This document shows positions 2,740 to 22,247 of a stretch of DNA of 64,000 nucleotides, in pieces. A program made the translations under genes and the position numbers. How positions within the stretch are numbered: position 1 is the stretch's first letter; every line of letters begins with the position of its first letter. Origin of the DNA: Candidatus Moraniibacteriota bacterium (GTDB lineage: Bacteria; Patescibacteriota; Minisyncoccia; Moranbacterales; GWC2-37-73); NCBI GenBank assembly GCA_035390125.1, contig DAOOTD010000002.1:169908-233907 (forward strand). Direction: 5' to 3'. The notes under the pieces were generated by a model. The model was not told the origin of the DNA. It searched no databases and saw only the letters and a list, made by a program, of their open reading frames with translations.

Positions 2740-3984
2740 ATGAAAAAAATAATCCCACAATCTATAAAAAATGTCTATCATCTGAGTCAGGCGATTATGG
2801 CTAATTTTTTGTATGGCTTTCCATCGCATAGGATAAAAATAATTGGCGTGACAGGAACCAATGGAAAAACAACCACTGTGCAAATGATTGCTAAAATTTT
2901 AGAAGAAAATGGGTTTAAAACGGCAGTTGCCTCAACCATAAATTTTAAATTAGGCAGTGAAGAATGGGTTAATAAAACAAAATTTACAACACTCTCTTCT
3001 TTTGCTGTACAGAAATTTATAAAAAAATCAGTTCAGGCAGGTTGTAAATATTTGGTTTTGGAGACTTCTTCGCATTCCCTTGATCAATATAGAGTATGGG
3101 GTGTTAAATATGAAACTGCTGTTATTACTAATGTCACCAGGGAGCACCTAGACTACCATAAGACAATGAAAGAATACAGAAAGGTTAAATCAGAATTATT
3201 TAAAAAGGCCAATAATGCAATTATAAATTTAGATATGGAAAATCCGGGAGAATTTTTAAACATTTCTACTGGCAAAAAAATTACTTATTCATTAAAAAAC
3301 AATAAAGCTGATATTTTAGCGAAAAATATATCATTAAATCCATCAGGAACTAAATTTTCGGTTAAAAATACAGAAATAAATTTAAAATTGCTAGGAGAAT
3401 TTAATATAGAAAATGCACTGGCGGCTATCTGTGTGGGCATTTCTGAAGAAATAAACATGGAAATAATAAAAAATTCCTTAGAAAAAATAAAACTAGTGCC
3501 AGGTAGAATGGAAAATATCCCGAATAAAAGAAAGATTAATATTATTATTGACTATGCGGTAACTCCGGATTCTTTAGAAAAACTCTACCAATTAATAAAT
3601 CATATCAATACCTCAAGATCTAAGATTATTGCCGTGTTTGGTTCTTGCGGTGAAAGAGACCGCGGCAAGAGGCCGATAATGGGAGAAATAGTTTCAAAAT
3701 ACGCTGATTATATAATTGTTACTAACGAAGATCCATATAATGAGAATCCGATTAGAGTAATTGATGAAGTTGCTTCAGGGATTAGAAACAAAATTGAAGG
3801 AGAAAAGTTTTGGAAAATTTTAGATAGAAAAGAAGCAATTAAAAAAGCCCTGATTTTATCGAAAGAGGGCGATTTTGTTATCGTAACTGGCAAAGGGGCG
3901 GAAGAAACCATGGCGGTTGGTAAAAAAAGAATTCCTTGGAATGATAGGAGAATTATAGAGGAAGAATTAGAAAGTTTAAGCTAG
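2740..3984 (+). CDS. murE: Mur ligase family protein, MurE-like (UDP-MurNAc-tripeptide synthetase)
   Basis: P-loop GVTGTNGKTTT, ETSSHSL, NVTREHLDYH and a C-terminal TNEDPYNENP that is DNPR-like. Confidence 0.6.
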   Translation: MKKIIPQSIKNVYHLSQAIMANFLYGFPSHRIKIIGVTGTNGKTTTVQMIAKILEENGFKTAVASTINFKLGSEEWVNKTKFTTLSSFAVQKFIKKSVQAGCKYLVLETSSHSLDQYRVWGVKYETAVITNVTREHLDYHKTMKEYRKVKSELFKKANNAIINLDMENPGEFLNISTGKKITYSLKNNKADILAKNISLNPSGTKFSVKNTEINLKLLGEFNIENALAAICVGISEEINMEIIKNSLEKIKLVPGRMENIPNKRKINIIIDYAVTPDSLEKLYQLINHINTSRSKIIAVFGSCGERDRGKRPIMGEIVSKYADYIIVTNEDPYNENPIRVIDEVASGIRNKIEGEKFWKILDRKEAIKKALILSKEGDFVIVTGKGAEETMAVGKKRIPWNDRRIIEEELESLS

Positions 3985-4416
3985 CAGGCTTATAAAAACT
4001 AAAGTGAAAACAAATCCTAAAATTGCACCGACAATAACCTCACTAGTTCTGTGCCCCGTTCGTTCTTTCAAGCGAGGAAACTTGCTCTCATCGAAATTAA
4101 GTTGCTGTATGAGCATATTAAGGTAACGTCCCTGGTCTCCCAGGTACATGCGTATTCTTGTCGCATCGTCAATAATAATAAATGCTAGTGCAAAAGTTAC
4201 AGCAAATGAACCAGAGTGGAAACCTTCAAAATAGCCTACTGATGTTACTAGAGAAATTGCAAAGGCCGTATGAGCCGATGGCATGTGTCCATGAGTAAAA
4301 AGGTAACGAATATCCCAACCATGTTTTGTGCTATAAATTATAAATTTGATGGCTTGTGTAATAATACCGACAAAAACAGGAATAAGAAAAATGGCATAGG
4401 AAGTAATAAATTTCAT
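3976..4416 (-). CDS. DUF212 / divergent PAP2-like membrane protein
   Basis: Multi-TM protein with GHMPSAHTA (PSGH-type) motif. Confidence 0.45.
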   Translation of the reverse strand: MKFITSYAIFLIPVFVGIITQAIKFIIYSTKHGWDIRYLFTHGHMPSAHTAFAISLVTSVGYFEGFHSGSFAVTFALAFIIIDDATRIRMYLGDQGRYLNMLIQQLNFDESKFPRLKERTGHRTSEVIVGAILGFVFTLVFISLLA

Positions 4417-8749: not shown

Positions 8750-10555
8750 ATGAATAAAAATGTAGAAGAAATAAAATCGAGACTTAATATCGTTGATGTA
8801 GTCGGCGAATATGTCCGTCTAACAAAAGCAGGCGCAAACTGGAAAGGCTTATGTCCTTTTCATCATGAAAAAACTCCTTCTTTCACGGTTAATGAAGAAA
8901 AACAGATCTTTCATTGCTTTGGCTGTACTAAGGGTGGGGATGTTTTAACTTTTATTCAAGAGATAGAAAGTATTGAATTTAGAGAAGCCTTGAAAATGCT
9001 GGCAGAAAAAGCCGGAGTAGAGCTGGAAGAATATAAATCACAAGATACAGATAATAAAAAAAGAATTTTAGAAATTCTAGAACTTGGGACTAAGTTTTAT
9101 GAAACACAGCTTTGGAAAGGAGCAGGAAAAGACAAAATACTAAAATATCTTTACGATCGCGGGCTGACCGAAGAAAGCATTAAAAAATTCCGTTTAGGTT
9201 ATGCTCCGGAGGGGTGGATAAATATCCTAAATTTTTTGATAGAAAGAGGTTATAAAATTGATGAAATAAATAAAACCGGTCTTTTGGTAGAAAAGTCTAA
9301 CGAAGCTAAAAGCCACAAACTGGAAGCTAATTATTATGATCGATTTAGGGATAGGATAATTTTTCCTATTCAGGATATTTTTGGAAATGTGATTGGTTTT
9401 TCGGCCAGGGTAGCTCCAGGAGGAGATGAATCACAGGCAAAATACGTGAATACTCCAGAAACAGCAGTTTATCATAAAAGCAAGGCTCTTTATGGTATCT
9501 CGCATGCGAAGAATGAAATAAAAAATAAAAATTATACGCTTTTAGTGGAAGGGAATATGGACGTTATTGCGGCTTCCCAAGCAGGAATTCAAAACGCAGT
9601 TGCAGTTTCTGGGATAGCCTTGACTGCCGATCAGATTATAATGCTTAAAAGATATTCCCAGAATCTGGCCATGCTTTTTGATATGGACAGTGCCGGGCAA
9701 CAGGCTGCAGAGAAAAGTGCAGACTTGTGTTTTGAGAAAGACATGAAGGTAAAAATAGTCGCCTTGTCTGATGGAAAAGATGCGGCTGATGTGGTTAAAA
9801 AAGACCCGCAGCTTTTATTAAAAGCGGTTAAAGAATCAGTCGGAGCTATGGAATATTTTTTCAATTTAATCTTGAAAAAATATGATAAAAATTCAGCCAG
9901 TGGCAAGAATGGTATTGCCAAAGAAATTCTGGCACATGTTTCACATATTGAAAATAAAATAGAAAAATCACATTGGGTAAAGAAAATCTCGCATGAGCTT
10001 GATGTGGAAGAAAATGTAATAAACAATGTATTAAAAGAAGTTGTTGCTATTCCCAGGGAATACGCTGGATATGAAAGCGAACAGACAGAAAAAAAATCAT
10101 CCTTTCAGAAACGCAGTGATTTAATAAGTGAATCATTAATAGGAGTTATTTTAAGCAGTAGCGAAATATGGAAAGGAATATTTGAAAAAGAAAGAGAAAA
10201 TGAAAGTATTAAAAATGATGAACTATTGTGGTTCGTGCTTAAGAAAGGTCCAGAGGCTGAGTTTTCTTTCGATAAAATGCTTACAATAATTGAAGATGAC
10301 CAGATTGTGGAAAAACTGCGCAGGATTTATTTTGAAACAAAGTACCGCTTCGCACAGGAAGAAATAGTCGAACAAACAGAGGAAGAGCTTAAAAAATTAG
10401 CAGATGGATATATGGTTGAATATAATAGAGAATTGCAAAAAGAAAAAATCCGTAGTATTATAAAGGAAATCGAGAAAGCTGAAAACAAGGGCGATAAAGA
10501 AACCCTTGCCAAATTAATGAGCGAGTTTACTAAACTTTCTCAAGAGATTCAATAG
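8750..10555 (+). CDS. dnaG: DNA primase
   Basis: Zinc finger CPFHHEKTPSF...HCFGC and a TOPRIM region (EGNMDV). Confidence 0.9.
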   Translation: MNKNVEEIKSRLNIVDVVGEYVRLTKAGANWKGLCPFHHEKTPSFTVNEEKQIFHCFGCTKGGDVLTFIQEIESIEFREALKMLAEKAGVELEEYKSQDTDNKKRILEILELGTKFYETQLWKGAGKDKILKYLYDRGLTEESIKKFRLGYAPEGWINILNFLIERGYKIDEINKTGLLVEKSNEAKSHKLEANYYDRFRDRIIFPIQDIFGNVIGFSARVAPGGDESQAKYVNTPETAVYHKSKALYGISHAKNEIKNKNYTLLVEGNMDVIAASQAGIQNAVAVSGIALTADQIIMLKRYSQNLAMLFDMDSAGQQAAEKSADLCFEKDMKVKIVALSDGKDAADVVKKDPQLLLKAVKESVGAMEYFFNLILKKYDKNSASGKNGIAKEILAHVSHIENKIEKSHWVKKISHELDVEENVINNVLKEVVAIPREYAGYESEQTEKKSSFQKRSDLISESLIGVILSSSEIWKGIFEKERENESIKNDELLWFVLKKGPEAEFSFDKMLTIIEDDQIVEKLRRIYFETKYRFAQEEIVEQTEEELKKLADGYMVEYNRELQKEKIRSIIKEIEKAENKGDKETLAKLMSEFTKLSQEIQ

Positions 10556-12087: not shown

Positions 12088-12162
12088 TCCGGCGTAGCGC
12101 AACGGTAGCGCAGGGGACTGTTAATCCCTTGGTTGTAGGTTCGAATCCTACCGCCGGAGCCA
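12088..12162 (+). tRNA. tRNA-Asn (anticodon GTT) with encoded CCA
   Basis: Hand-folded. Acceptor TCCGGCG/CGCCGGA, anticodon loop CTGTTAA, T-arm TAGGTTCGAATCCTA, 3' GCCA. Confidence 0.9.
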
Positions 12163-13632
12163 TTCTTTAGTTTTGGCATATTCCATTATGCCATTAAAGG
12201 GAGCTTTTACCTCAAATGAAAGCTTTCCTGCATTTAAAGTAAGGTTCTGAAGTAAGAAACCCAATAGTTGGGTTTTTTCTTGTGGTTCAGAATTTTGGAA
12301 CAATTCTAATGCCCTTTGCGACAAGTCTAATACTTTATTTGCTGTAAGACTGAAGTCTCTATCAGCGGACGAATGTTCCTGAAGTTGTGTATTTAAGTTT
12401 TCTCTTTCTTGTGTGTATTCAATAGCCATTTTGTCATATTCGTCCGCAGTAATACGTCCATCAAGTCTGTCTCTATACATAACCTTTAACCTTGCATCTA
12501 TATTGCCTATTTTTCTTTGAATAGTTGCTTTATTTTTCTCATAATACACTTTTTCAGCATCATGAATAGTTCTTAGCTCATCTTTGAGCCTATCAAGGGC
12601 TTCTGGCTCCAATTTTAAACTCTGAAATAGGTCTTTAGTTTGATCCACTAATTCATCTTCTCTCAACCACTTTATTCCTTTATCAGGACAAGTCCCGTAA
12701 TAATTAGTGCAATGATAGTAAACATGCCCTTTCTGAAGTTCTGGCGTAATTGCTAATCCGCAATGTGAACATTTTATCAATCCTCTGAAAATATATGGAT
12801 TGTTTGTTCGTTTGAAATTTTGCCTATTATAGCCGTTTATAACTTCTTGGACTTTTTCAAATAAATATCTTGAAACGATAGGTTGATATTTATGCGGATA
12901 TAGCTTACCCTTAACTCTCATTACGCCGTAATAGAACGGGTTTCTTAAAATTGCATGAACTTGGCTTGTTGTCATCTTCATTCCGCTCCTACTTCTCAAG
13001 CCTCTGTCGTTCATTTCCTGTGCAAGCTTTTTCATTGAAAATTTACCCGTGGCATACAACTGAAACATTTTTAGGACTAGAAATTCTTTGTCCTTGTCTA
13101 TGATAATATGCTTTTTTTCATTTTCCAGTGTTATATTTTTATATCCCAGATAGGCTTGTCCAATCCATTCGCCATTCCTTAATTTCTGCTCGTAAGCTCT
13201 TTTTACATTGTCGCTAATTGCATCAGAATAATATTTCGCCAGACCTAAATTTATTCCAAAATGAAATTTTTCTGCTGCCGATATATTTGAAGAGATAACA
13301 AGGTTGTCTGAAACAAAATGTAATTCTATTTTATCTTGCATTGCTAAATCATATAAAAGTGGAACGCGTTTATCAAAAACATTTCGCGTAAATCTATCTA
13401 CTTTGTCAAAACAGACTACAATTTTATCTTTGCTTTTCTTTACTAAATCAATTGCCTTATCAAATTCGTCTCTTTTTTGTTTATAGGCACTTTCATCAAA
13501 GCTAAAGATTTCTAAAACTGCAAAACCTTTTGTTTTGCAGTATTCTTTAAGCCTATGAATTTGAGCTGGTAGAGAGTTTCCGGCGTCTTTTTGTTCTTCT
13601 GTTGAAACTCTAGCTAATATTATCGCTTTCAT
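12148..13632 (-). CDS. large serine recombinase (resolvase/invertase-type N-terminal domain + recombinase domain + Zn ribbon); start at MKAIIL (track ORF extends to 13677)
   Basis: ILARVSTEEQ...GNSLPAQ catalytic Ser region, and a Cys cluster CSHCG...CTNYYGTC. Confidence 0.8.
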   Translation of the reverse strand: MKAIILARVSTEEQKDAGNSLPAQIHRLKEYCKTKGFAVLEIFSFDESAYKQKRDEFDKAIDLVKKSKDKIVVCFDKVDRFTRNVFDKRVPLLYDLAMQDKIELHFVSDNLVISSNISAAEKFHFGINLGLAKYYSDAISDNVKRAYEQKLRNGEWIGQAYLGYKNITLENEKKHIIIDKDKEFLVLKMFQLYATGKFSMKKLAQEMNDRGLRSRSGMKMTTSQVHAILRNPFYYGVMRVKGKLYPHKYQPIVSRYLFEKVQEVINGYNRQNFKRTNNPYIFRGLIKCSHCGLAITPELQKGHVYYHCTNYYGTCPDKGIKWLREDELVDQTKDLFQSLKLEPEALDRLKDELRTIHDAEKVYYEKNKATIQRKIGNIDARLKVMYRDRLDGRITADEYDKMAIEYTQERENLNTQLQEHSSADRDFSLTANKVLDLSQRALELFQNSEPQEKTQLLGFLLQNLTLNAGKLSFEVKAPFNGIMEYAKTKEWLRR

Positions 13633-15320
13633 TTTACGAATGCGTTTTGGACTGTTTGCGAAATTTGCTGATACCAATCTTTTTCATTTTCAGTTTTCAA
13701 CGCAAGATTAGATAGTGAATTAAACAAATTTTTTAAATCATCTGCTTTCGGTTTAATTGCGGAGCTATGGGCGTTTTTTAATAAACATTTGAAGTCCTCT
13801 AAACTTAAAGGTATTATTTGTGATTTTCCGCCATAATATTCTATGTTGATGCGATACAAACCGTAGTAGTGAGCAATGGTAGCATTATTCAAATTAGGAG
13901 CTACAAATATTCCAAATACAGGTTTTGAATTGCTTTTTTTATATTGACCATAGTGTCTTGCTACAGGCTCTCCTTCCATTTCATATTGTTTTTGTCCTGA
14001 TGATAGAGTGACTTCAACAATTGCATCAAAATCTTTATATTTACAAACTATATCGGGTGTGTTGCCTGGAGCTGTATATAATGGCATACCATCGTCATCA
14101 ATTTTAAAGTTTCCTTGAATATCTCCGTCGTTCAACATTGTAAAAGCTCTCCAAATATTCCATTCAAAGAAAAGAGATGGATCTATATTTTCTCTATTTA
14201 CAATACCTGAAAAAACTTCAAGTATATCATTATATTCTTCATAATTTCGTAATTTACTTTTTTCATTTTCAATATATTTTTCAAGACTCTCTTTGATTAG
14301 GCTTTCATAGATATTTTTCAAGTCTTCCGTGTCCTTCTCTTTGAGTGCCGAAACACTAACTCTTGTATCTTTCTGTGTAATTTTAGAAATTATCAAGTCT
14401 TTATTATCTACAAGAAGCAATGGCTTGCTCGCATCAAACAAATTCGCTTCATAATCTTCTTCATCTTTATATGCAAATATATCCCTATCAATATTCTTTA
14501 GAATAAATTCAATATCATTTTTTCTTTCTTTGAGAATGTATACTTTTGATGTTTTTGGATTTAACGAAAACAGTCCGGTAGCACGAAGATACCTAATAGA
14601 GGCATCGGCATAATCAAGATGATTACTTCGTTTAGTTTTAACAAAATTATCTAAAGTTTGTTCCTTACTTTCCCTTATTGATAACTTTCCTTGCTCAATG
14701 TCTTCCTTGAATAATTCAGTCAGCTCTTTCTCAAATTGCAAGGCGATAAATTTTTTATAATTTATCTTTTTTGTTCGCAATAACTTTTTTTCTTCTCTGA
14801 AATTGATAATTTTATTTTTTACATTATTGTATTTAGCAAAATCTGTAAGTTGAATAACAAATAGCCCTATCTCATGCTTGCTTAAACCGTCTAATTCATA
14901 AATAAGTCTCATTAACTCAAGGTAGGGCTTTATTCTAAATGTGTTATTTTTATCTTTATGATAAGGCGAATGAAGCTGGAACTTCAATAGCTGTCTTAAA
15001 AATATCTCTTCCGGTCTGTTTCCATAAACATATTTTTTTCCAGCTTCAGTAAGCTTGATAACTGGCTTTAAGTCAATCAATCCAAGAGATTTAGGAGCTC
15101 TGTTTACTCTATCTCTAGCCTTAAAAGCGACATCTCCAGTTGCTGAACCCTCAAAAAAATCTTGTTTAGCTAGTTGTAAATAAAACTTTTTTTGAGTCTC
15201 TGAATTCCATTTCTGACCTTCAAAATTTTCTGATAAAAATTTTATCTCATCAACCAGTTTGTGTGGTGACCTAGGCGAGGTAACGAAAAATATTGTTTTT
15301 TTATCTGTTATGTGAGCCAT
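13629..15320 (-). CDS. putative type II restriction endonuclease (possibly AlwI-family-like; identity uncertain)
   Basis: 563-aa protein immediately downstream of a DNA methyltransferase in the same operon. C-terminal TPDIV..DAIVEVT..QK resembles a PD-(D/E)xK core. Confidence 0.4.
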   Translation of the reverse strand: MAHITDKKTIFFVTSPRSPHKLVDEIKFLSENFEGQKWNSETQKKFYLQLAKQDFFEGSATGDVAFKARDRVNRAPKSLGLIDLKPVIKLTEAGKKYVYGNRPEEIFLRQLLKFQLHSPYHKDKNNTFRIKPYLELMRLIYELDGLSKHEIGLFVIQLTDFAKYNNVKNKIINFREEKKLLRTKKINYKKFIALQFEKELTELFKEDIEQGKLSIRESKEQTLDNFVKTKRSNHLDYADASIRYLRATGLFSLNPKTSKVYILKERKNDIEFILKNIDRDIFAYKDEEDYEANLFDASKPLLLVDNKDLIISKITQKDTRVSVSALKEKDTEDLKNIYESLIKESLEKYIENEKSKLRNYEEYNDILEVFSGIVNRENIDPSLFFEWNIWRAFTMLNDGDIQGNFKIDDDGMPLYTAPGNTPDIVCKYKDFDAIVEVTLSSGQKQYEMEGEPVARHYGQYKKSNSKPVFGIFVAPNLNNATIAHYYGLYRINIEYYGGKSQIIPLSLEDFKCLLKNAHSSAIKPKADDLKNLFNSLSNLALKTENEKDWYQQISQTVQNAFVK

Positions 15321-15347: not shown

Positions 15348-16139
15348 TTACCAAAATATTTTCTCGTTATCTGGAATAGAGGAATTTTTTTGAAGAATAT
15401 CTTTTTTAAATTTAATATATTCTTTAATTCTCTTTTCCGATATTTCAATAGACTTGTTTGAGATATCACAGCCTATAAAATTACAATTATGTTTGATTGA
15501 AGAAATTGCTGCAGAGCCACTGCCTAAAAATGGGTCACAGACAACAAAGTTTGGTGAAGTGCTGGCACTTAACATTATGTCAAATAATTCAACCGGTTTC
15601 TGCGTAGGATACTTTGCTTGATGAACCCTCTTAATTCTCCAAACATCTGGAAATGAGCGGCTCTTTATCTTACGGTTGTTTTTATTTGTTGCAAAAATAA
15701 TAAATTCGTGTCGCCTTCTGAAATAATGTCCCATTCCTAAATTGACCTTATCCCAGGAAATAATATTTTTCACATCAAATAGTTCTCTTACTATTGGACC
15801 AAGCGAAAGAAGGGAGTAGGAATCAAACATTATATATAAATGACCTGAACTTTTCAGTGCTTTTTTGCACAATAGCAAAAAATTTCTATAATTTTCTTCT
15901 GTATCTTTGAATTCCTCAAACCATTTTCCATTTACTGTTCCTTTTTCGGCATATTTTCCAACAATTCTTCCGTTCCCCAAGCTTAAATGATTATTCATTC
16001 CTGAATAAGCTGGATCTGTTACAATAATGTCTATACTTTTTTCTGGCTGACTTTCAAGAAATTTTAATACATCATCGTGAACGATTTTTATTGTATTTTT
16101 TCCTTTATTATATTTGACCTCAAAAGATAATTTTCTCAT
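15348..16139 (-). CDS. beta-class N6-adenine/N4-cytosine DNA methyltransferase (N6_N4_Mtase family); start at MRKLSF (track ORF extends to 16160)
   Basis: Motif IV TDPAY (DPPY-like) at the N-terminus, YPTQKP, and motif I DPFLGSGSAA at the C-terminus; this motif order defines the beta class. Confidence 0.8.
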   Translation of the reverse strand: MRKLSFEVKYNKGKNTIKIVHDDVLKFLESQPEKSIDIIVTDPAYSGMNNHLSLGNGRIVGKYAEKGTVNGKWFEEFKDTEENYRNFLLLCKKALKSSGHLYIMFDSYSLLSLGPIVRELFDVKNIISWDKVNLGMGHYFRRRHEFIIFATNKNNRKIKSRSFPDVWRIKRVHQAKYPTQKPVELFDIMLSASTSPNFVVCDPFLGSGSAAISSIKHNCNFIGCDISNKSIEISEKRIKEYIKFKKDILQKNSSIPDNEKIFW

Positions 16140-16143
16140 AGAT

Positions 16144-16320
16144 TTATTTTGTTGATGCATTTTCTACAAAACTTTGAAACTCGTTCTTTTTAATACGAAA
16201 CTCTTTACCGAATTTATAAGCTTTAATTTTTCCAGCTTTAATGTAGCGATAAATAGTCATTATATTTACCCTTAAAATATCAGCTAATTCTTGAGCTGTG
16301 TAAAATTCTTTTTCTTGCAT
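16144..16320 (-). CDS. excisionase-family (HTH_17/MerR-like) DNA-binding protein, 58 aa; not in the ORF track because it is under 60 aa
   Basis: Hand translation gives MQEKEFYTAQELADILRVNIMTIYRYIKAGKIKAYKFGKEFRIKKNEFQSFVENASTK, which matches the HTH_17 consensus (sELAeiLgVsrrTIYRwikaGklpayKiGr.wRI). Its stop lies 4 nt before the methyltransferase ATG. Confidence 0.6.
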   Translation of the reverse strand: MQEKEFYTAQELADILRVNIMTIYRYIKAGKIKAYKFGKEFRIKKNEFQSFVENASTK

Positions 16321-16357: not shown

Positions 16358-16558
16358 TTACAAGAAACAGTCCTTACGATCATTGCAACCACCACACGCA
16401 TCGCAATAATCATACTTTCCTATTACAGTAATCTCGTCCTCCAAGCCTCTTTTCTTTAGCTCCTTTCTTATTTCTTCAGCAGTTCGTCCTTGAAAAATTT
16501 CATCAAGCAACTCATCAGTGAGTTCAACTTTTTTCTTTTTTAAATTTTTTTTACTCAT
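16358..16558 (-). CDS. small CxxC-motif protein (YCDACGGCNDRKDC)
   Basis: 66-aa ORF between the Rep-like gene and the HTH gene, with a C-terminal 4-Cys cluster. Confidence 0.35.
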   Translation of the reverse strand: MSKKNLKKKKVELTDELLDEIFQGRTAEEIRKELKKRGLEDEITVIGKYDYCDACGGCNDRKDCFL

Positions 16559-16576
16559 TTATTTAGAATTAAATAA

Positions 16577-17722
16577 TTAACTCGTAATTTGCTCTTTCTT
16601 AAAGACATCAAATTTTTTTAATCCTTCTTCAATATCCTTCAAATAAAGCTCTGGCGACAATGCGTTTGTATTTAATGCTATTGCATTTAATTCTTTCAAG
16701 TGCTTGTTTACATTATTCCAAGAGCCTTTTCCGAATTTGTCCTCTATAATCTGACGAAACAATTCTGCACCCTCGCTCTTGCAAAAATCTTTGATAGCAT
16801 ACAGAGCTACTGCTTTTGTAGGTCTTCCATTTTGATTTGCGATATAATCAGAAATTTCCATAAGCTCATCTTTCTTGCTTTTGTTTTGCTGAAAGAGATG
16901 CAGGTTTCTTTCTTGGACAAGCGTATTCCAATAATCAAGCAAAACTTTTTGGCAAACATCTTTTTTAAAAATATCTCTGAAGTTTGGATTTTTGCCAAAT
17001 CCTATTTTTTCCAAAACCGTGTCCATTTTTCTTTTTTGCGAAAGCCTAACCTCCATTTTAAGAATTTCAATGTCAGTCTTTCTTCGCCACTCGTTTATCT
17101 GACAAAACAAACTTTTTTGATTTCCTTTCATATCGTGGTCAATTGACCTTTTTTCGTCTTTTCCCATATCGGCGATTTTATCGTAGAAAACTAGGGAGTG
17201 AGATTTTGAATAATACTGAAGTGAATGACCGCCGTTGCGAAAATCCGTCTTTGTCAGATCCAACCTCTTTGTTAGCTGTATTTTGGAAAGCTCTTTGATT
17301 GCCATTGTAGCTGTTATGTAGCCGTTTAACTCAATGTTTTTTGAGGCGTGAAATCCGGACACAGTAGCTTCCGCTAAATTATCTCGCATAATATAGACAC
17401 CTTTTTTGATTAGTTTTTCCTGTAATTTGAGGATAACTTCTTCAAAATCACTTTCTTTAATTTCGTCTAGATTATTCTGAAATAGTAACTTTGGAACTGA
17501 AAATTCAACTCTTAAACCGATATTTATTCCCATTCTTGAAGGTCGTCTATAGAGTGTCATTCTTGGATAATATTCCCATTTTGATTCTTCCTTTGAAGGA
17601 TTGTTAACGGCTTTGCCATATCCGGCATCAGATAAAAAGTCTTTCGCGTTAGGAAAAAACATTTCTGGCGTCCAAATATCAAACTTATCAAGTGGAAAAT
17701 TCAAGATTACTGTGTCTAGCAT
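16577..17722 (-). CDS. putative rolling-circle replication initiation protein (gpII/Phage_CRI or Rep_trans-like)
   Basis: N-terminus MLDTVILNFPLDKFDIW resembles the MIDxLVLRLPF start of filamentous-phage gpII-type Rep proteins. Context is a mobile element. Confidence 0.35.
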   Translation of the reverse strand: MLDTVILNFPLDKFDIWTPEMFFPNAKDFLSDAGYGKAVNNPSKEESKWEYYPRMTLYRRPSRMGINIGLRVEFSVPKLLFQNNLDEIKESDFEEVILKLQEKLIKKGVYIMRDNLAEATVSGFHASKNIELNGYITATMAIKELSKIQLTKRLDLTKTDFRNGGHSLQYYSKSHSLVFYDKIADMGKDEKRSIDHDMKGNQKSLFCQINEWRRKTDIEILKMEVRLSQKRKMDTVLEKIGFGKNPNFRDIFKKDVCQKVLLDYWNTLVQERNLHLFQQNKSKKDELMEISDYIANQNGRPTKAVALYAIKDFCKSEGAELFRQIIEDKFGKGSWNNVNKHLKELNAIALNTNALSPELYLKDIEEGLKKFDVFKKEQITS

Positions 17723-17907
17723 AATTTTGCGTTATTTTCATTATTCGTCTTATTTGAGCTATTTTCCTTTTGTTGTTCATTTATTCGTTTGTCAATTCTA
17801 AAAAGCAAGTCAAAAAATCCCACAAAATTGTGCTTTGCTTCAAATACTTCCTTGTTAGAAAGCGTCTTTTTGCTTAATTTCTCATAGAATTCCTTGTCAG
17901 ATAACAT
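17716..17907 (-). CDS. small hypothetical protein, first gene of the island operon
   Basis: 63-aa ORF overlapping the Rep start by 7 nt. Confidence 0.25.
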   Translation of the reverse strand: MLSDKEFYEKLSKKTLSNKEVFEAKHNFVGFFDLLFRIDKRINEQQKENSSNKTNNENNAKLC

Positions 17908-17910
17908 AAA

Positions 17911-17932
17911 ACCAGCAACTTTAAATTGCTGG
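17911..17932. promoter_or_regulatory. 7-bp perfect inverted repeat CCAGCAA-N7-TTGCTGG just upstream of the island operon (operator or candidate nick/origin hairpin)
   Basis: Seen directly in sequence at 17912-17918 and 17926-17932. Confidence 0.3.
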
Positions 17933-18222
17933 CTTCTGAAGACAAAAAAAGAGACAACAGAGGCTAATCAACTTAAAGTTGAATGCTTTGTTATCTCAAA
18001 GGCTGTATGCAGGTTAAGATTGCTGTAGTGCCCTAGGGCGACTTATAGTATTAACGTTCCAAGTCTTATATTGAGCTAAATCAAAACTTTATTAACTTTT
18101 TAAGGCTTATATATACAATATCATACAAAAATAGACTTTGTCAAGGTGTAGTTATTTTGTTATAAATTTAATTTTTAAGCCAAAAAATGGCTTAAATAAG
18201 CTGTCGCGCAGCTGAACATTCA

Positions 18223-18438
18223 TTACTTTTTCTTACTTTCAGTAATTTTCTTTAGAAATTTTTTTCTTTCGCTTTTGTTTAAAAAAACGCTTTCAAAGAA
18301 GTATTGCATTTGAACTAAATTATAGTCTAAATTTACACTTTTCAGCTCTTTGTTGATGCTTTTAACTACGAATTTTTCCAGCTTGGCGTTCTCTCTTCTC
18401 TGAATTCTTGGCAGTAATAGTTTCTTCGTAAACCTCAT
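18223..18438 (-). CDS. hypothetical small basic protein
   Basis: 71-aa ORF, Lys/Arg-rich. Confidence 0.25.
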   Translation of the reverse strand: MRFTKKLLLPRIQRRENAKLEKFVVKSINKELKSVNLDYNLVQMQYFFESVFLNKSERKKFLKKITESKKK

Positions 18439-18503
18439 ATAATTTGTGATAAATTTTTAATTTTTATATACTTTATAAAAGAAACTCATAATATTTTAAT
18501 AAA

Positions 18504-19427
18504 ATGGACTTATCTGAAATTGAAAAAAGAAATGCTTCTGTAAATAAATACCTAGAAGGTATTAGCGATGAGGAGCTTAGAAAAAAAGGTGATGAAGAAT
18601 ATGCCAAGGCGGAAAAGGATTTTAAGGAATTAAAAGAAGCTCTTGCGGAAGGAAAATGTAGTTTCTGCGGAAATTCTATTTCTCATTTTTCTGAAAAGAA
18701 ACCGTGTTTTCATTGGCTTTTAAAACCGAATGGCTTTAAGAAAAGACACTTTCCCTTGCTATATAAAAAATATAGTTTTCGTAGAATGGAGGCATATTTA
18801 CGCTGGGTGGCAAATACTGATATACCCCTTAAAAATATAAACGATTTAGTTGAAGAAAAAACATCTTCAAAAAAAATTGAGCTAACAGTGGTCTATAAAG
18901 ATTTAGAATGGTCATTTTCCTGTTCTAGGTCTGATTATCAAGGACATCAAGACAAACGAGAAGGAAAAATGCCTCACTATCATTTTCAGATGAAGAAAGC
19001 TGGCAATGTAATAATAAACTATGCCGGCTTCCATATTCCTTTTCACGATGAAGATTTTTTTTCATTTGCATTGAGTGAAGGAAAAATTCCCAGACTAGGC
19101 TATAAACATATTCACGGTGCGGGAATGCAAGAACTTCTTGATAATTTTTCTCCAGAAGAAATTCTTGAGCAAATGGTAAAGGCTGACGATGAAGAAAATG
19201 CTCAATTTCATACCTCTACGCTTGTCGAGGCTGATCCCGGAACTACAATATCAGGTTCAGTCATCGCTGATTTAGTAGAGGAGCATAAACGAACAGGAAT
19301 TCCAATGGCACGACTTATTCAAAAATTACCAAACATTAAAGCGACTAGCTATATTACTCCCGGTCCCGGCGTGCCAGAATTAGCAAAAAGAACTCCAAGA
19401 CGTAAAAAAATGCAAGAAGACAAATAG
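18504..19427 (+). CDS. hypothetical Cys/His-rich protein (possible Zn-binding; CSFCGN...CFHW, HYHFQ, HIPFHDED)
   Basis: 307-aa ORF in island cargo; no recognisable family. Confidence 0.4.
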   Translation: MDLSEIEKRNASVNKYLEGISDEELRKKGDEEYAKAEKDFKELKEALAEGKCSFCGNSISHFSEKKPCFHWLLKPNGFKKRHFPLLYKKYSFRRMEAYLRWVANTDIPLKNINDLVEEKTSSKKIELTVVYKDLEWSFSCSRSDYQGHQDKREGKMPHYHFQMKKAGNVIINYAGFHIPFHDEDFFSFALSEGKIPRLGYKHIHGAGMQELLDNFSPEEILEQMVKADDEENAQFHTSTLVEADPGTTISGSVIADLVEEHKRTGIPMARLIQKLPNIKATSYITPGPGVPELAKRTPRRKKMQEDK

Positions 19428-19631
19428 CATTCCTCTGATTTGTCCTGTGATGTCCTGTTATAGCTCTGCAAATGCTGGCAACAATTCCATTTCTTGCATA
19501 AGTCTTCCTAAATTCAAGTTTCTGAACATATTAGCTAGCGGGAGCAACGATTTTCAGGACTTATTTAAAGCCCTGTTTTTTATATTTGTTCAATTCATAA
19601 TTCTAAATTTTTATAATTAGCGAATTATATA

Positions 19632-19660
19632 TTGACAAAAATATAGCCTGGGTATATGAT
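19632..19660 (+). promoter_or_regulatory. near-consensus sigma70 promoter (TTGACA-17-TATGAT)
   Basis: TTGACA at 19632-19637 and TATGAT at 19655-19660. AGGAGG RBS at 19692-19697 precedes the ATG at 19703. Confidence 0.5.
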
Positions 19661-19702
19661 TTTTTGTTATACAAAAATTGTTCTATTAAAAAGGAGGAAA
19701 CA

Positions 19703-19999
19703 ATGAGAATCATTAACAAAACTTCTTTTAATCTAATTGCATTCGGTTGGCACACAAAGTATGGCTACGGAAATGATGTGGAAATAAAAACAGGCCAATT
19801 CGCTGATATTTCTGGTTCATATATTGGCGAAATGGGCGGCGGAAGTTGCTGTATAGCCATTGAAGGAGAAGTTATTTGTCAGGAAACTCCTGATGATGAA
19901 AACGGATTTCAAGTTATTCCTGGTAGTCAACTTAACCTTCAGGCTGGTGACAAGGGTATAACCGTTCGTCATTTCTCGGAAGAAAGAATCATTGGATAA
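19703..19999 (+). CDS. hypothetical 98-aa protein (track ORF 19664-19999; start moved to the RBS-supported Met)
   Basis: Strong RBS AAAGGAGG 7 nt upstream; Gly/Cys motif GGGSCCIAIEGE. Confidence 0.45.
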   Translation: MRIINKTSFNLIAFGWHTKYGYGNDVEIKTGQFADISGSYIGEMGGGSCCIAIEGEVICQETPDDENGFQVIPGSQLNLQAGDKGITVRHFSEERIIG

Positions 20000-20003
20000 T
20001 AAT

Positions 20004-20045
20004 ACCCGCCGGCAGAAAATCTGCTTTGGTGGGTTTTCTGTTTTT
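20004..20045 (+). terminator. hairpin + T-run terminator (CCCGCCGGCAG...CTGCTTTGGTGGG TTTTCTGTTTTT)
   Basis: Imperfect GC-rich stem followed by a T-tract. The 3' arm and T-tract are the start of the 52-bp repeat. Confidence 0.45.
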
Positions 20046-20073
20046 ATATCAAACTTAAATTAAATTCTTCCAA
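20022..20073 (+). repeat. copy 1 of a 52-bp direct repeat (TGCTTTGGTGGGTTTTCTGTTTTTATATCAAACTTAAATTAAATTCTTCCAA)
   Basis: 51 of 52 nt identical to 20761-20812. Confidence 0.8.
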
Positions 20074-20178
20074 AATTTTCCAAAACTTTACTCACTTAAA
20101 AGTGCTCAATTTTTAGTATGGGCATCATATTTTAATGGCTTATTTAAGCCTTTTTTTATTTAATTTATTAATTGCTTG

Positions 20179-20206
20179 TTGACATAAAGTTTAATTTATG
20201 TATAAT
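20179..20206 (+). promoter_or_regulatory. consensus sigma70 promoter (TTGACA-16-TATAAT, TG immediately upstream of the -10)
   Basis: TTGACA at 20179-20184 and TATAAT at 20201-20206. GGAGG RBS precedes the TTG start at 20259. Confidence 0.55.
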
Positions 20207-20258
20207 AAAAAATCTGATTCATTATGGATCAGAAATATTATAATTAGGAGGTAGTAAC

Positions 20259-20717
20259 TTGGAAAAAGCAATCGAAGCGGTAAAGGGTTCATTTTTGGCT
20301 GATGTTTTGGGCTTTATTGGCAAAGGAGTTTTTCCTAGCGTTGGAGCAGCCGTAAAGGAGAATGAAGAGGTAATCGGCGATATGAGTCTTTTCGAAAAAG
20401 GCTTGCTAGCTTACGCAGATTTCTGCGGTAAAAAAGAAGAAGAACTGGTAGAACAGCTCAATAAGATGAAAGAAAAAAACGAGCAGGAGTCGCCGGAATT
20501 CAAGCCGAAGCATAATGAGCTTAAAACTATCAGGGAAAATTTTGAGATTTCCAATGAGCTCATGTGGAATTCGATAAGGGGAAGATTTGGCGTTTGGGAC
20601 TGCGGCACCGGCATAAGAGATGGCTATAAAGTCATCAAGATGAGCAAAAATCTGCTCGGGGCCGGTTTTCCTGATCTTGGAGGCATCTCCATAATTCATG
20701 TGAGTCTGAAGGATTAA
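20259..20717 (+). CDS. hypothetical 152-aa protein (TTG start)
   Basis: ORF with RBS TAGGAGGT 6 nt upstream; no recognisable family. Confidence 0.4.
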   Translation: MEKAIEAVKGSFLADVLGFIGKGVFPSVGAAVKENEEVIGDMSLFEKGLLAYADFCGKKEEELVEQLNKMKEKNEQESPEFKPKHNELKTIRENFEISNELMWNSIRGRFGVWDCGTGIRDGYKVIKMSKNLLGAGFPDLGGISIIHVSLKD

Positions 20718-20742
20718 GTAAAGTTACTTTATTATAATATAA

Positions 20743-20785
20743 CCCACCAGCAAGGAAACTTGCTTTGGTGGGTTTTCTGTTTTTA
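20743..20785 (+). terminator. rho-independent terminator (CCCACCAGCAAG-GAAA-CTTGCTTTGGTGGG followed by TTTTCTGTTTTT)
   Basis: 12-bp stem and T-run; overlaps repeat copy 2. Confidence 0.6.
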
Positions 20786-20812
20786 TATCCAACTTAAATT
20801 AAATTCTTCCAA
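20761..20812 (+). repeat. copy 2 of the 52-bp direct repeat
   Basis: 51 of 52 nt identical to 20022-20073. Confidence 0.8.
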
Positions 20813-20954
20813 TAATTCACCAAATTATCTATAATTAAAAGTTATAATTTTTTTACTAAATTGAACCAAATAAAACACACTTTTTATGGGGTTATTTTTT
20901 ATACCAGAGTAGGATGATAGAATTTATGTTATAATAAACCTAGTAATAATTTTT

Positions 20955-21407
20955 TTGAATATTATTATGAAAAACACATTAAGTAATTTCAAAGCATCGT
21001 TGGTTTTCTTTTTTATCACAATTGTTCCTTCTATTTATATTTCTGCAATTTTGAGTAATTTTGTTTTCAACAGCATAATATCTGATACTGATATAAGTTA
21101 TAAATCTATGATGAGTATATTGTTTGTTATCAGGATATTGGCAAATATATTTATAACTTGGATTCTTATTATGGTGGTTTCAAATTTTATTAAAAAATTT
21201 TTTTCCATAGATCAGCCCAATGTTATTGTTATTACGGCCACAACACTGCTTGTTTTTCTTGAATTGATTTTGTTATTTCAAACAGGAACTTTTTCGCCGG
21301 AAGTTATTAGTCAAGAAAAAATGCAATTTACTATCATTATTGCAAGTCTACTGTCTTATTTCGTATTTTATTATTTTATCAGTAAATTCTATTTGAACGA
21401 TAAATAA
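20955..21407 (+). CDS. hypothetical polytopic membrane protein
   Basis: Four hydrophobic helices, no motif. Confidence 0.4.
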   Translation: MNIIMKNTLSNFKASLVFFFITIVPSIYISAILSNFVFNSIISDTDISYKSMMSILFVIRILANIFITWILIMVVSNFIKKFFSIDQPNVIVITATTLLVFLELILLFQTGTFSPEVISQEKMQFTIIIASLLSYFVFYYFISKFYLNDK

Positions 21408-21437: not shown

Positions 21438-22247
21438 ATGAAAAATAAAAAAGGTAGCATTGTTTTAACTCTAGTCATTATTATTATTTGGATAATCACA
21501 GCCGGAGGCGGCGGTTGGTTTTTGGCGTTTTTGGAAAGTAAAAAACAAACTGCAACTCCCTTGCCACCTGCTCACACTTATGATGAAGCTGTAAAAATCC
21601 CGACTCAAAATGAAAAAAAAGCTTCAGATAAATCAATAAAATTAGATGAAAAAGCATCACCTAAAAAAGAGATTGTTTTGCCTGAAGAAACAAATCTATC
21701 TATACCATTTGTTCTGCAAGCGCCAAACCAGAATTGGGTCTATCCCTATGAAGATTTCTGTGAAGAAGCATCGGTTTTAATGGCAGCTAGTTATTTAAAA
21801 AACAGCCCAATACTCAATTCTAACGATGCTGATGCAAAACTTCTTTCTATTATGGATTTCGAAATGAAAAAATTTGGATATCACAAAGACACAAACATAG
21901 AAGAAACAGCAACTATTCTTCGTGAGTTATATAATTTGCAAAAGATTGAAATAGTTTATAATCCAAGCGTGAATGAAATTAAAATTGCTTTGGCTGAAGG
22001 GAAAGCCGTAGTAGTTCCATTGGCTGGCCGAGAATTAAAAAATCCTAATTTTCGTAGTCCTGGCCCGCTATATCATATGCTGGTAATTAAAGGTTATGAT
22101 AAGAATGATAATTTTATAACGAATGAACCGGGAACCAGAAAAGGTGCTAATTATAGGTATAAAACAGGAATAATAATGAATGCTATTCATGATTGGAATA
22201 ATGGAGATGTGTATAATGGGAAAAAAGCTGTGATAATAGCAGGCTAG
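21438..22247 (+). CDS. membrane-anchored peptidase C39-like domain protein
   Basis: N-terminal TM helix, then VLQAPNQNW...CEEASVLMA (candidate Cys) and YHMLVIKGYD (candidate His), resembling Peptidase_C39_2. Confidence 0.45.
   Translation: MKNKKGSIVLTLVIIIIWIITAGGGGWFLAFLESKKQTATPLPPAHTYDEAVKIPTQNEKKASDKSIKLDEKASPKKEIVLPEETNLSIPFVLQAPNQNWVYPYEDFCEEASVLMAASYLKNSPILNSNDADAKLLSIMDFEMKKFGYHKDTNIEETATILRELYNLQKIEIVYNPSVNEIKIALAEGKAVVVPLAGRELKNPNFRSPGPLYHMLVIKGYDKNDNFITNEPGTRKGANYRYKTGIIMNAIHDWNNGDVYNGKKAVIIAG

Follow-up and report, generated by a model that had tools for sequence, protein, structure and literature searches.

We analysed a 64-kb stretch of contig DAOOTD010000002.1 from a Candidatus Moraniibacteriota bacterium (the window, to which all positions refer unless a locus is named) and, within it, a repeated intergenic unit that lies around two small genes, named here gene 1 and gene 2. 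The window is matched by contig JAKLIP010000002.1 of the Candidatus Moranbacteria metagenome-assembled genome GCA_022709545.1. In 5' to 3' order it carries DnaG, RpoD, tRNA-Asn, the minus-strand genes of a putative serine-recombinase element, a run of small plus-strand genes and a convergent MurJ. Past the minus-strand element genes, the plus-strand run consists of the genes for a 307-residue (aa) protein, gene 1, gene 2, a 146-aa membrane protein and a C39-like peptidase. Behind both gene 1 and gene 2 stands a hairpin with the features of an intrinsic terminator (named T1), and a 52-bp direct repeat overlaps both hairpins. We found that these are parts of a composite intergenic cassette of ~190 nt, which occurs in Moranbacteria-like genomes and consists of T1, a spacer of ~90 nt, a small second predicted terminator (T2, GGCTTA..TAAGCC and a T-run) and a predicted promoter, ~135-145 nt after T1. 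Loci in other genomes and contigs are given by L numbers. The features around genes 1 and 2 are as follows.

19470..19660, plus strand: partial cassette upstream of gene 1, with a spacer remnant, a T2-like predicted terminator and a predicted promoter, and without the T1 hairpin
19557-19581, plus strand: T2-like small predicted terminator of the partial cassette, GGACTTATTTAAAGCCC and a T-run
19632-19660, plus strand: predicted promoter TTGACA-17-TATGAT (promoter scan, 11/12)
19703..19999, plus strand: gene 1, 98 aa, all-beta protein according to its predicted structure
20004..20045, plus strand: T1 copy 1, predicted terminator; hairpin 20004-20034, then TTTCTGTTTTT (covariance model R1, 70.6 bits, E 1e-16)
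20022..20073, plus strand: 52-bp repeat, copy 1; 3' arm of T1, T-run and first 28 nt of the spacer
20046..20206, plus strand: remainder of cassette copy 1, with spacer, T2 and promoter (alignment with intergenic regions a, b and c of L064)
20046-20136, plus strand: conserved spacer of cassette copy 1
20137-20157, plus strand: T2 of cassette copy 1, small predicted terminator, GGCTTATTTAAGCC and T7
20179-20206, plus strand: predicted promoter TTGACA-16-TATAAT (promoter scan, 12/12)
20259..20717, plus strand: gene 2, 152 aa, open reading frame (ORF) with a TTG start
20741..20784, plus strand: T1 copy 2, predicted terminator; hairpin 20741-20774, then a T-run (R1, 64.2 bits)
20761..20812, plus strand: 52-bp repeat, copy 2, matching copy 1 at 51/52 positions
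20785..20853, plus strand: degenerate spacer of cassette copy 2 (nhmmer 20786-20850, 15.8 bits, a weak match), with no clear T2 downstream

Anatomy of the repeat and the cassette

The 52-bp direct repeat reported in a preliminary description of this DNA was recovered, with 51 of 52 positions identical between 20022-20073 and 20761-20812. The 64-kb window holds no further copy with up to three mismatches, and none of 100 shuffles gave a match. A weaker similarity of ~80% surrounds the repeat and extends it to ~101-120 nt (20005-20115 and 20743-20853). Both T1 copies combine a stable G+C-rich hairpin, a U-tract and a place 3' of a stop codon, and the predicted folds (-18.9 kcal/mol, z -4.3, for 20004-20034; -21.5 kcal/mol, z -5.6, for 20741-20774) are each followed by TTTCTGTTTTT. 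These predictions agree with the earlier view that a hairpin terminator stands behind each gene. Covariance model R1 recognises only these two copies in the window, the next match having 18.7 bits; therefore, T1 is not the generic terminator of this genome.

The 5' arms of the two hairpins had been noted to differ, which was taken to suggest selection on the repeat and not on the stem. The arms do differ, yet they share a common origin: at two positions an A-to-G change replaces an A-U pair by a G-U pair, and the two pairs at the top of the stem are exchanged between the copies with compensation. Thus the stem is kept, which speaks against the earlier suggestion. The 5' arms vary more because the 3' arm is rich in G and U, so that transitions in the 5' arm still pair and those in the 3' arm do not. 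The 5' arm of copy 2, ACCCACCAGC, agrees with the consensus of the hairpin family described below, and that of copy 1 is close to copy b of L064 (16/18 positions).

The identity of the two window copies changes abruptly along their length. It is 61% in the 5' arm and loop, 100% in the 3' arm and T-run, 96% in the next 28 nt, 61% in the 45 nt after these and 41% in the T2 region. The three cassette copies of L064 are more evenly alike, at 65-91% past the 5' arm and loop. Sharply bounded near-identity in otherwise diverged copies is the trace of gene conversion or of a recombination junction, and not of uniform selection or a single old duplication. The 52-bp tract of 98% identity inside flanks of ~60% suggests that cassette copies have recently recombined or undergone gene conversion with each other.

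Intergenic regions a, b and c of L064 and IG1 of the window align over their whole length, each with T1, spacer, T2 and a TTGACA promoter. A nhmmer model of the spacer and T2 matched the window at 20047-20164 (81.9 bits) and L007 at 13117-13233 (50.5 bits). The partial cassette upstream of gene 1 aligns locally to IG1 and to the cassettes of L064 and L007 (z 3.7-7.1), and this homology to the distal part of the cassette begins at ~19470, possibly at 19439, between the 307-aa gene and gene 1. The near-consensus sigma70 promoters that had been placed at 19632 and 20179 are found at these positions and are the two best matches in 12 kb. Matches of at least 11/12 are not significantly enriched in this AT-rich window (8, vs 5.2 in shuffles). 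What makes the two predicted promoters credible is their placement, 70-80 nt ahead of the start codons, together with a TTGACA at the equivalent place upstream of the gene 1 or gene 2 homologues in L007, L008 and L009, and not the rarity of such matches. The previous description of the region as promoter-gene-terminator units is supported. Past cassette copy 2, the gene for the 146-aa protein begins at 20967.

Gene 1 has 13 homologues (54-78% identity). Those in L008, L009 and L010 (56-78%) lie in unrelated neighbourhoods and have retained nearly the same hairpin. Within the gene-1 family, identity is 86-97% in T1, against 56-79% in the coding sequence and 27-60% at third codon positions. Gene 2 has one homologue (50% identity), which is part of the cassette array of L007 and is followed by another terminator; therefore, the T1 behind gene 2 appears to have been gained in this lineage. 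A small hairpin in the 5' untranslated region, CTGAT..ATCAG, lies between the promoter and the ribosome-binding site of both gene 2 (20213-20233, -9.9 kcal/mol) and its L007 homologue (9525-9540, -12 kcal/mol), and could be a conserved leader element.

Gene 1, gene 2 and the 307-aa protein match no family in Pfam, PHROGs, PADLOC or NCBIfam. The earlier statement that they belong to no recognisable family is correct for these collections; as a statement that they are orphans it is not, gene 2 alone being nearly one. A defence function had also been proposed for them, for which we found no evidence, and no defence-system model matched. Structure prediction, suggested as a check, gave confident models for gene 1 (predicted local distance difference test, pLDDT, 93.4) and the 307-aa protein (AlphaFold2, pLDDT 96). 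In Foldseek searches, the gene 1 model had no significant fold match in the PDB and the 307-aa model had none in the PDB or BFVD.

The T1 family and breakpoints of homology

The T1 consensus is AACCCACCAGCrGAAAAyCyGCTTCGGTGGGTTTTCTGTTTTT (~42 nt), with a conserved bulge of 2-3 nt. We scanned one genome per species with the pattern ACCCRCCRGC-N(8-11)-GCTTYGGTGGGTTTT, which specifies ~23 bases, and found T1 in 27 loci/genomes; by our own estimate from pattern length and collection size, well below one would be expected by chance. Twenty-four of these are labelled Patescibacteria of several classes (Paceibacteria, Saccharibacteria, Nomura-, Moran-, Adler-, Giovannoni- and Falkowbacteria), and the GC content of the loci spans 31-58%. 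A scan of metagenome contigs, made with the 3' arm and T-run only, found 43 contigs, in which the 5' arms are more variable and mostly still pair via G-U. The preliminary description had left room for a repeat that occurs nowhere else; the same hairpin follows unrelated genes in many genomes. Neither pattern matched a contig in the viral collection. The Rfam covariance models gave nothing near a gathering score on the repeats, the best being AaHKsRNA82 (E 2.8-3.8).

The remaining three of the 27 T1 genomes (L020, L036 and L038) are labelled Micavibrio or Bdellovibrionales. A membrane protein of 181-185 aa is common to L038, L020 and the Moranbacteria-like L064. T1 in these three genomes reflects either transfer into predatory bacteria or mis-binned contigs of the candidate phyla radiation (CPR).

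The pairing of the hairpin is maintained across the family. In 66 distinct copies, 85.5% of the cells are paired, compared with 35-56% when the partners are slid. Two positions covary (AU 28, GC 17 and GU 10 at one; AU 12 and GC 11 at the other), and variation in the lower stem is limited, since it was fixed by the search patterns. At 68 of 69 hairpins, an ORF of at least 40 aa on the same strand ends between 55 nt before and 1 nt past the start of the stem. These 68 ORFs encode 48-390 aa (median ~125 aa), are unrelated and differ in almost every locus, and the median gap between their stop codon and the stem is 5 nt. TTGACA-type promoters stand in front of many ORFs upstream of T1. Of 58 ORFs compared with Pfam, few had a match, with 16 families in total, each in one or two ORFs. 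No shared neighbour gene could explain T1, as no family is common to more than four loci.

Arrays of the cassette are clearest in L064, whose RpoD is 80% identical to that of the window. The order there is RpoD, a C39 peptidase and tRNA-Asn, after which promoter, orphan ORF and T1 recur as a unit. L064 has five T1 copies, all on the same strand; four come directly after an ORF, and a TTGACA promoter precedes three of these four ORFs. In L007, which has the sole gene 2 homologue, monocistronic genes are separated by full and partial cassettes. The covariance model detected one T1 copy in L007 and two each in L038, L048 and L050. The two L038 copies share 57 of 59 positions, including ~25 nt past the T-run, which is the same phenomenon as in the window. 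Partial copies of the spacer and T2 were found with nhmmer in L007 and L046.

Comparison between genomes shows that the hairpin is a breakpoint of homology in both directions. L013 and L018, like L065 and L074, have the hairpin and the downstream sequence in common and are unrelated upstream. L014 and L061, as well as the gene 1 homologues, have the gene and the hairpin in common and are unrelated downstream. L025 and L027 are 95.8% identical over the hairpin and 75 nt, with other short patches reordered. The preliminary description had compared the structure to a cassette, a recombination site or a mobile 3' module. The recurrence of the hairpin and of the ~190-nt unit behind unrelated genes agrees with a cassette or mobile module; a dedicated recombination site finds no counterpart in a linked recombinase. 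It had also been asked whether the repeat flanks variable genes in related strains. Homology does break at the hairpin between genomes; however, exact-protein look-ups gave six loci (five distinct contigs), and in each of them the compared region agrees with the window at 100% identity.

The tRNA-Asn region and the serine-recombinase element

Between RpoD and gene 1 lies the tRNA-Asn gene, followed by a putative integrated element. Its features are listed below.

12088..12162, plus strand: tRNA-Asn (GTT), found by ARAGORN; anchor of the variable region, its 3' end being the predicted left junction of the element
12148..13632, minus strand: large serine recombinase, 494 aa (Pfam Resolvase, Recombinase and Zn_ribbon_recom, weak)
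13629-15320, minus strand: AlwI-family type II restriction enzyme (Pfam, PHROGs, PADLOC REase_II), putative element cargo
15348-16160, minus strand: N4/N6 DNA methyltransferase (Pfam, PHROGs, PADLOC MTase_II), putative element cargo
16144-16320, minus strand: HTH_17 excisionase-like protein (Pfam/PHROGs), putative element cargo
16358..18438, minus strand: four element genes of 66, 381, 63 and 71 aa (ORFs and gene calls)
18504..19427, plus strand: 307-aa protein of an uncharacterised family with an invariant Cys/His set

L083, from a relative with 93.6% DNA identity, aligns to the window from 8732 to exactly 12162 and diverges afterwards. Because this match stops at the last base of tRNA-Asn, we place the left end of the insertion at 12162/12163. 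The recombinase frame terminates inside the 3' end of tRNA-Asn, with a 15-nt overlap on the opposite strand (12148-12162), and therefore the predicted junction falls in the last codons of the recombinase. With its Resolvase, Recombinase and zinc-ribbon domains, the enzyme encoded at the junction is of the kind that defines a large-serine-recombinase element. The recombinase also has XisF, CcrB and CcrA-like matches in NCBIfam, every one under the curated cut-offs. The four genes of 66, 381, 63 and 71 aa match no family in Pfam, PHROGs, PADLOC or NCBIfam, and the 381-aa protein has no match in the viral collection. A repeat of the tRNA tail that would mark the right end was sought in the window and none was found, which fits a serine recombinase. 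The right junction is bracketed to 19427-19550 by the point where homology to the cassette begins. Thus, the element most likely runs from 12163 to near 19430-19550, and the 307-aa gene is probably its last gene. No empty site of the element was recovered.

The family of the 307-aa protein comprises 330 representative clusters, in which C52, C55, C68 and H70 (a CCCH set) as well as H158, H160 and H177 are invariant. A sequence-profile search of the PDB with this protein found no relative. The predicted structure may represent a new metal-binding fold.

In two independent assemblies from the population of the window, short or of low coverage (L002/L005 and L006), the sequence breaks off at 19236 and 19337. 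Both breaks fall within 100 nt of each other, inside the 3'-terminal part of the 307-aa gene and near the predicted right end of the element; the contig of one of the broken assemblies (ERZ795055) has a coverage of 3.8. They may reflect population heterogeneity at the junction. Inside the element, a small T2-like predicted terminator (GGCTTAAATAAGCC type) lies in inverted orientation at 18174-18201, after the 71-aa gene. Together with the T2 of cassette copy 1 (20137-20157), it makes up an inverted repeat of 20 nt with 95% complementarity.

In several loci, T1 is found near tRNA-Asn. This gene lies on the same strand at most 2.6 kb upstream of T1 in L012, L064, L029, L034, L040 and L055, the L007 and L010 contigs start inside it, and the window also has an upstream tRNA-Asn on the same strand. 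The arrays of L012 and L064 start right at the tRNA gene. L082, whose RpoD is 95% identical, has a truncated tRNA-Asn, an intact tRNA-Asn and then a 3'-end fragment at 3878-4200; these copies look like traces of repeated integration. Partial copies of tRNA-Asn also occur in L029. Because T1 lies near tRNA-Asn in these loci and partial tRNA copies are found, we regard the tRNA-Asn downstream of rpoD as a recurrent hotspot. A C39-family peptidase lies beside the variable region both in L064 (11407-11877, minus strand), where it precedes the tRNA, and in the window (21438-22247), where, unlike in L064, it follows the array. A 207-aa IS200-like Y1_Tnp protein (PF01797) is encoded in L055 (4538-5161) and in L007 (2357-2980), the two being 83% identical.

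We also considered a pseudo-tRNA, as the remnant of an attachment (att) site, in the spacer. Alignments of the tRNA with its flank reached z values of up to 8, but the signal came from T2 and the GGAGCA tip. The tRNA-Asn body alone was not significantly similar to the cassettes, except weakly in L007, and a tRNA-Asn hidden Markov model had no match to them. We retain this candidate as a hypothesis only.

The preliminary description had treated genes 1 and 2 as island cargo. The 3' part of a cassette is already present upstream of gene 1, and the L064 array is without a recombinase: none was found in 12.9 kb, and a domain scan of ten array ORFs detected none either. It is thus probable that genes 1 and 2 are residents of the flexible region and not cargo of the element. 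No relative without the element and with genes 1 and 2 was found. Because of the cassette part upstream of gene 1 and the arrays that begin at tRNA-Asn in L064 and L012, the element would be later than the array. This suggests that the serine-recombinase element, with the 307-aa gene, inserted between tRNA-Asn and a pre-existing array.

Explanations and known systems

We consider it probable that genes 1 and 2 are followed by two copies of the composite intergenic cassette, of which the 52-bp repeat is the best-matching part, and that recombination between such copies moves the modules. In this explanation, T1 would end transcription a few bases past the stop codon of the upstream gene and the cassette promoter would drive the next gene, so that each small gene would be an insulated, separately transcribed unit. 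The cassettes separate unrelated, mostly orphan genes in same-strand arrays of flexible regions, often directly downstream of tRNA-Asn. Copies that share 40-190 nt could recombine within a genome and with incoming DNA, and in this way promoter-gene-terminator modules would be moved, replaced or added. Recombination between the two window copies would excise a circle of 739 bp with gene 2 and its promoter. The serine-recombinase element would be a separate, later insertion at the same hotspot.

Several observations weigh against this explanation. The spacer and T2 were found only in the window, L064, L007 and, weakly, L046, and arrays are seen in few loci. Among the strains and close relatives found, no allele lacks gene 2 and has a single cassette, and because of this we infer the recombination step from comparative patterns only. 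No recombinase or other enzyme linked to the cassette was found. The copy number is low, with one strict T1 match in each of the 27 genome loci. The scans used fixed patterns, and part of the apparent invariance of T1 comes from this selection of loci. A ~40-nt hairpin conserved across classes goes beyond the needs of termination and may reflect another constraint, such as a protein partner or a transposase. A bolder proposal is that T1 and the cassette form a Patescibacteria-specific gene-exchange device, in which a Y1 transposase, some other recombinase or the replication and repair machinery would actively recognise the hairpin. We regard this as doubtful. If true, orphan genes equipped with promoters would be captured, stacked at tRNA-Asn and traded among distant CPR lineages, and the device would be a functional analogue of the integron, built from a terminator.

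A simple local duplication, in which the terminator region was copied once between genes 1 and 2 and the 52 bp are the undiverged remainder, would account for the presence of just two copies in 64 kb, for the contigs with these genes being 100% identical over the compared region, without variation, and for the different terminator of the gene 2 homologue in L007. It is largely refuted by the distribution of the family, as the same hairpin and the same spacer-T2-promoter unit stand behind unrelated genes elsewhere. It also predicts uniform divergence, not 98% inside ~60%, and the consensus-like 5' arm of copy 2 and the L064 copy b-like arm of copy 1 point to different family members with a converted patch. 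We therefore consider a local duplication very unlikely. An RNA function, with T1 as a protein-bound element of the 3' untranslated region or the T1-T2 spacer encoding a small RNA, is also quite unlikely, and is compatible with recombining cassettes in any case. T1 is more conserved than its gene and shows covariation, the spacer ends in its own predicted terminator T2, and some copies have a TATAAT-like box, but this promoter-like box is missing from IG1 of the window and from copy a of L064. No Rfam family matches, and the spacer has no predicted structure beyond a weak hairpin. For covariation within the spacer, there are too few independent copies.

Two further alternatives make T1 itself the mobile or recombining unit. 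T1 could be a miniature element resembling the repetitive extragenic palindromic (REP) sequences, moved in trans by a Y1 transposase, either a REP-associated tyrosine transposase (RAYT) or an IS200-like one, and a terminator only incidentally. The few T1 copies contrast with the tens to hundreds typical of REPs, 68 of the 69 hairpins are in terminator orientation, and no Y1 gene is present in the window or in loci other than L055 and L007. In these two, both with T1, a Y1_Tnp gene does adjoin tRNA-Asn; however, the Y1 genes are not flanked by T1, and no pair of filled and empty sites was seen. T1 nevertheless resembles such elements as an imperfect palindrome with a conserved 2-3 nt bulge, by its conservation at the sequence level and as a breakpoint of homology, and we judge this origin unlikely. 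The least likely of the explanations considered is that T1 is the site of a site-specific recombinase, either in attC-like cassettes or in mini-elements that stacked at tRNA-Asn and left att remnants. The same-strand arrays from a fixed anchor, tRNA-Asn, the hairpin with extrahelical bases directly after a stop codon and the partial tRNA-Asn copies in L082 and L029 would all be expected, and the second half of the cassette resembles the tRNA-Asn tip with the downstream terminator and promoter (z up to 8). The T1 alignment, however, lacks the R-box motifs of attC, the similarity to the tRNA body is not significant, the window holds no tRNA-tail repeat, and the cassettes have their own promoters, unlike integron cassettes. 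A tblastn search with a CPR Xer-like protein found no tyrosine recombinase in the window (a weak test, of window DNA only), and the ten L064 array ORFs have no recombinase domain (likewise a weak test, of the sequenced locus only). A tRNA-tail repeat is not required by the serine recombinase of the window, whose gene lies outside the array.

The hairpin family and the composite cassette appear to be undescribed, with no match in Rfam and no paper returned by a full-text literature search. Patescibacteria have tiny genomes, are mostly uncultured and carry many functionally uncharacterised genes; how these arise and turn over is poorly understood. A shared cassette would give a searchable marker for their flexible gene pool and would offer a plausible route for shuffling it without classical mobile-element genes. 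It would also supply a strong promoter and terminator pair for genetic tools in Patescibacteria, and the ~42-nt T1 hairpin is a candidate entry for RNA-motif libraries.

Among known systems, integron attC cassettes also form same-strand arrays of single, mostly unknown genes near a fixed anchor, with an imperfect hairpin with extrahelical bases close behind each gene. In contrast to integrons, the genes here have their own TTGACA-type promoters, T1 is a predicted terminator with a U-tract, and its consensus (AACCCACC...GGTGGGTTTTCT) lacks the RYYYAAC / GTTRRRY core (R'/R''); no IntI-type integrase was found in the weak tests made, namely the tblastn search of the window and the scan of the L064 array ORFs. 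The REP/RAYT systems (REPtrons) likewise have short, conserved, imperfect palindromes in 3' intergenic positions that are possible terminators, and a Y1 gene is near two of our loci, but T1 differs in its low copy number, its fixed orientation, the T-run within the conserved unit and in not flanking Y1. Phage morons are single accessory genes that each lie between a promoter and a terminator of their own, as genes 1 and 2 seem to do; unlike here, morons have no common bracket sequence, and the setting of the window is not a prophage.

Two other systems, tycheposons and PeSL cassettes, come closest. Tycheposons are tRNA-proximal islands whose older content is displaced inward by newly arriving elements (Hackl et al., bioRxiv 10.1101/2020.12.28.424599). 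The locus resembles them in that a tRNA gene seems to be a recurrent integration hotspot in a streamlined genome and that an integrase-bearing element (serine recombinase, excisionase-like protein and restriction-modification cargo) lies directly at the tRNA. In addition, older flexible genes have seemingly been pushed inward, and partial tRNA copies are found in relatives. On the other hand, tycheposon cargo has not been described with a shared terminator-promoter cassette, and most tycheposons use tyrosine recombinases.

The promoter-early stem-loop (PeSL) elements of T4-type phages are mobile regulatory cassettes, whose copies have been proposed to serve as portable homology for recombination (Arbiol et al. 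2010, PMC2839356; Comeau et al. 2014, PMC4122927). Like PeSLs, the unit described here is a repeated intergenic combination of a terminator-like stem-loop and a strong sigma70-type predicted promoter, it lies between small orphan genes in hyperplastic regions, and homology between genomes breaks at the cassettes. By analogy, recombination between neighbouring copies would yield a one-gene circle with a promoter, of 739 bp in the window. PeSLs differ in that the stem-loop overlaps or adjoins the promoter, whereas here ~135-145 nt separate the two, and a conserved spacer and another predicted terminator lie in between, and in that the PeSL motif is kept within one phage lineage, whereas one hairpin sequence family here extends across classes. 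Moreover, the cassettes lie in Patescibacteria chromosomes, in the context of DnaG, RpoD, tRNA-Asn and MurJ, and no viral contig matched. Thus, the modular shuffling of T4-type phages may have a chromosomal counterpart, and the cassettes are best classed as PeSL-like regulatory cassettes within a tRNA-proximal flexible island.

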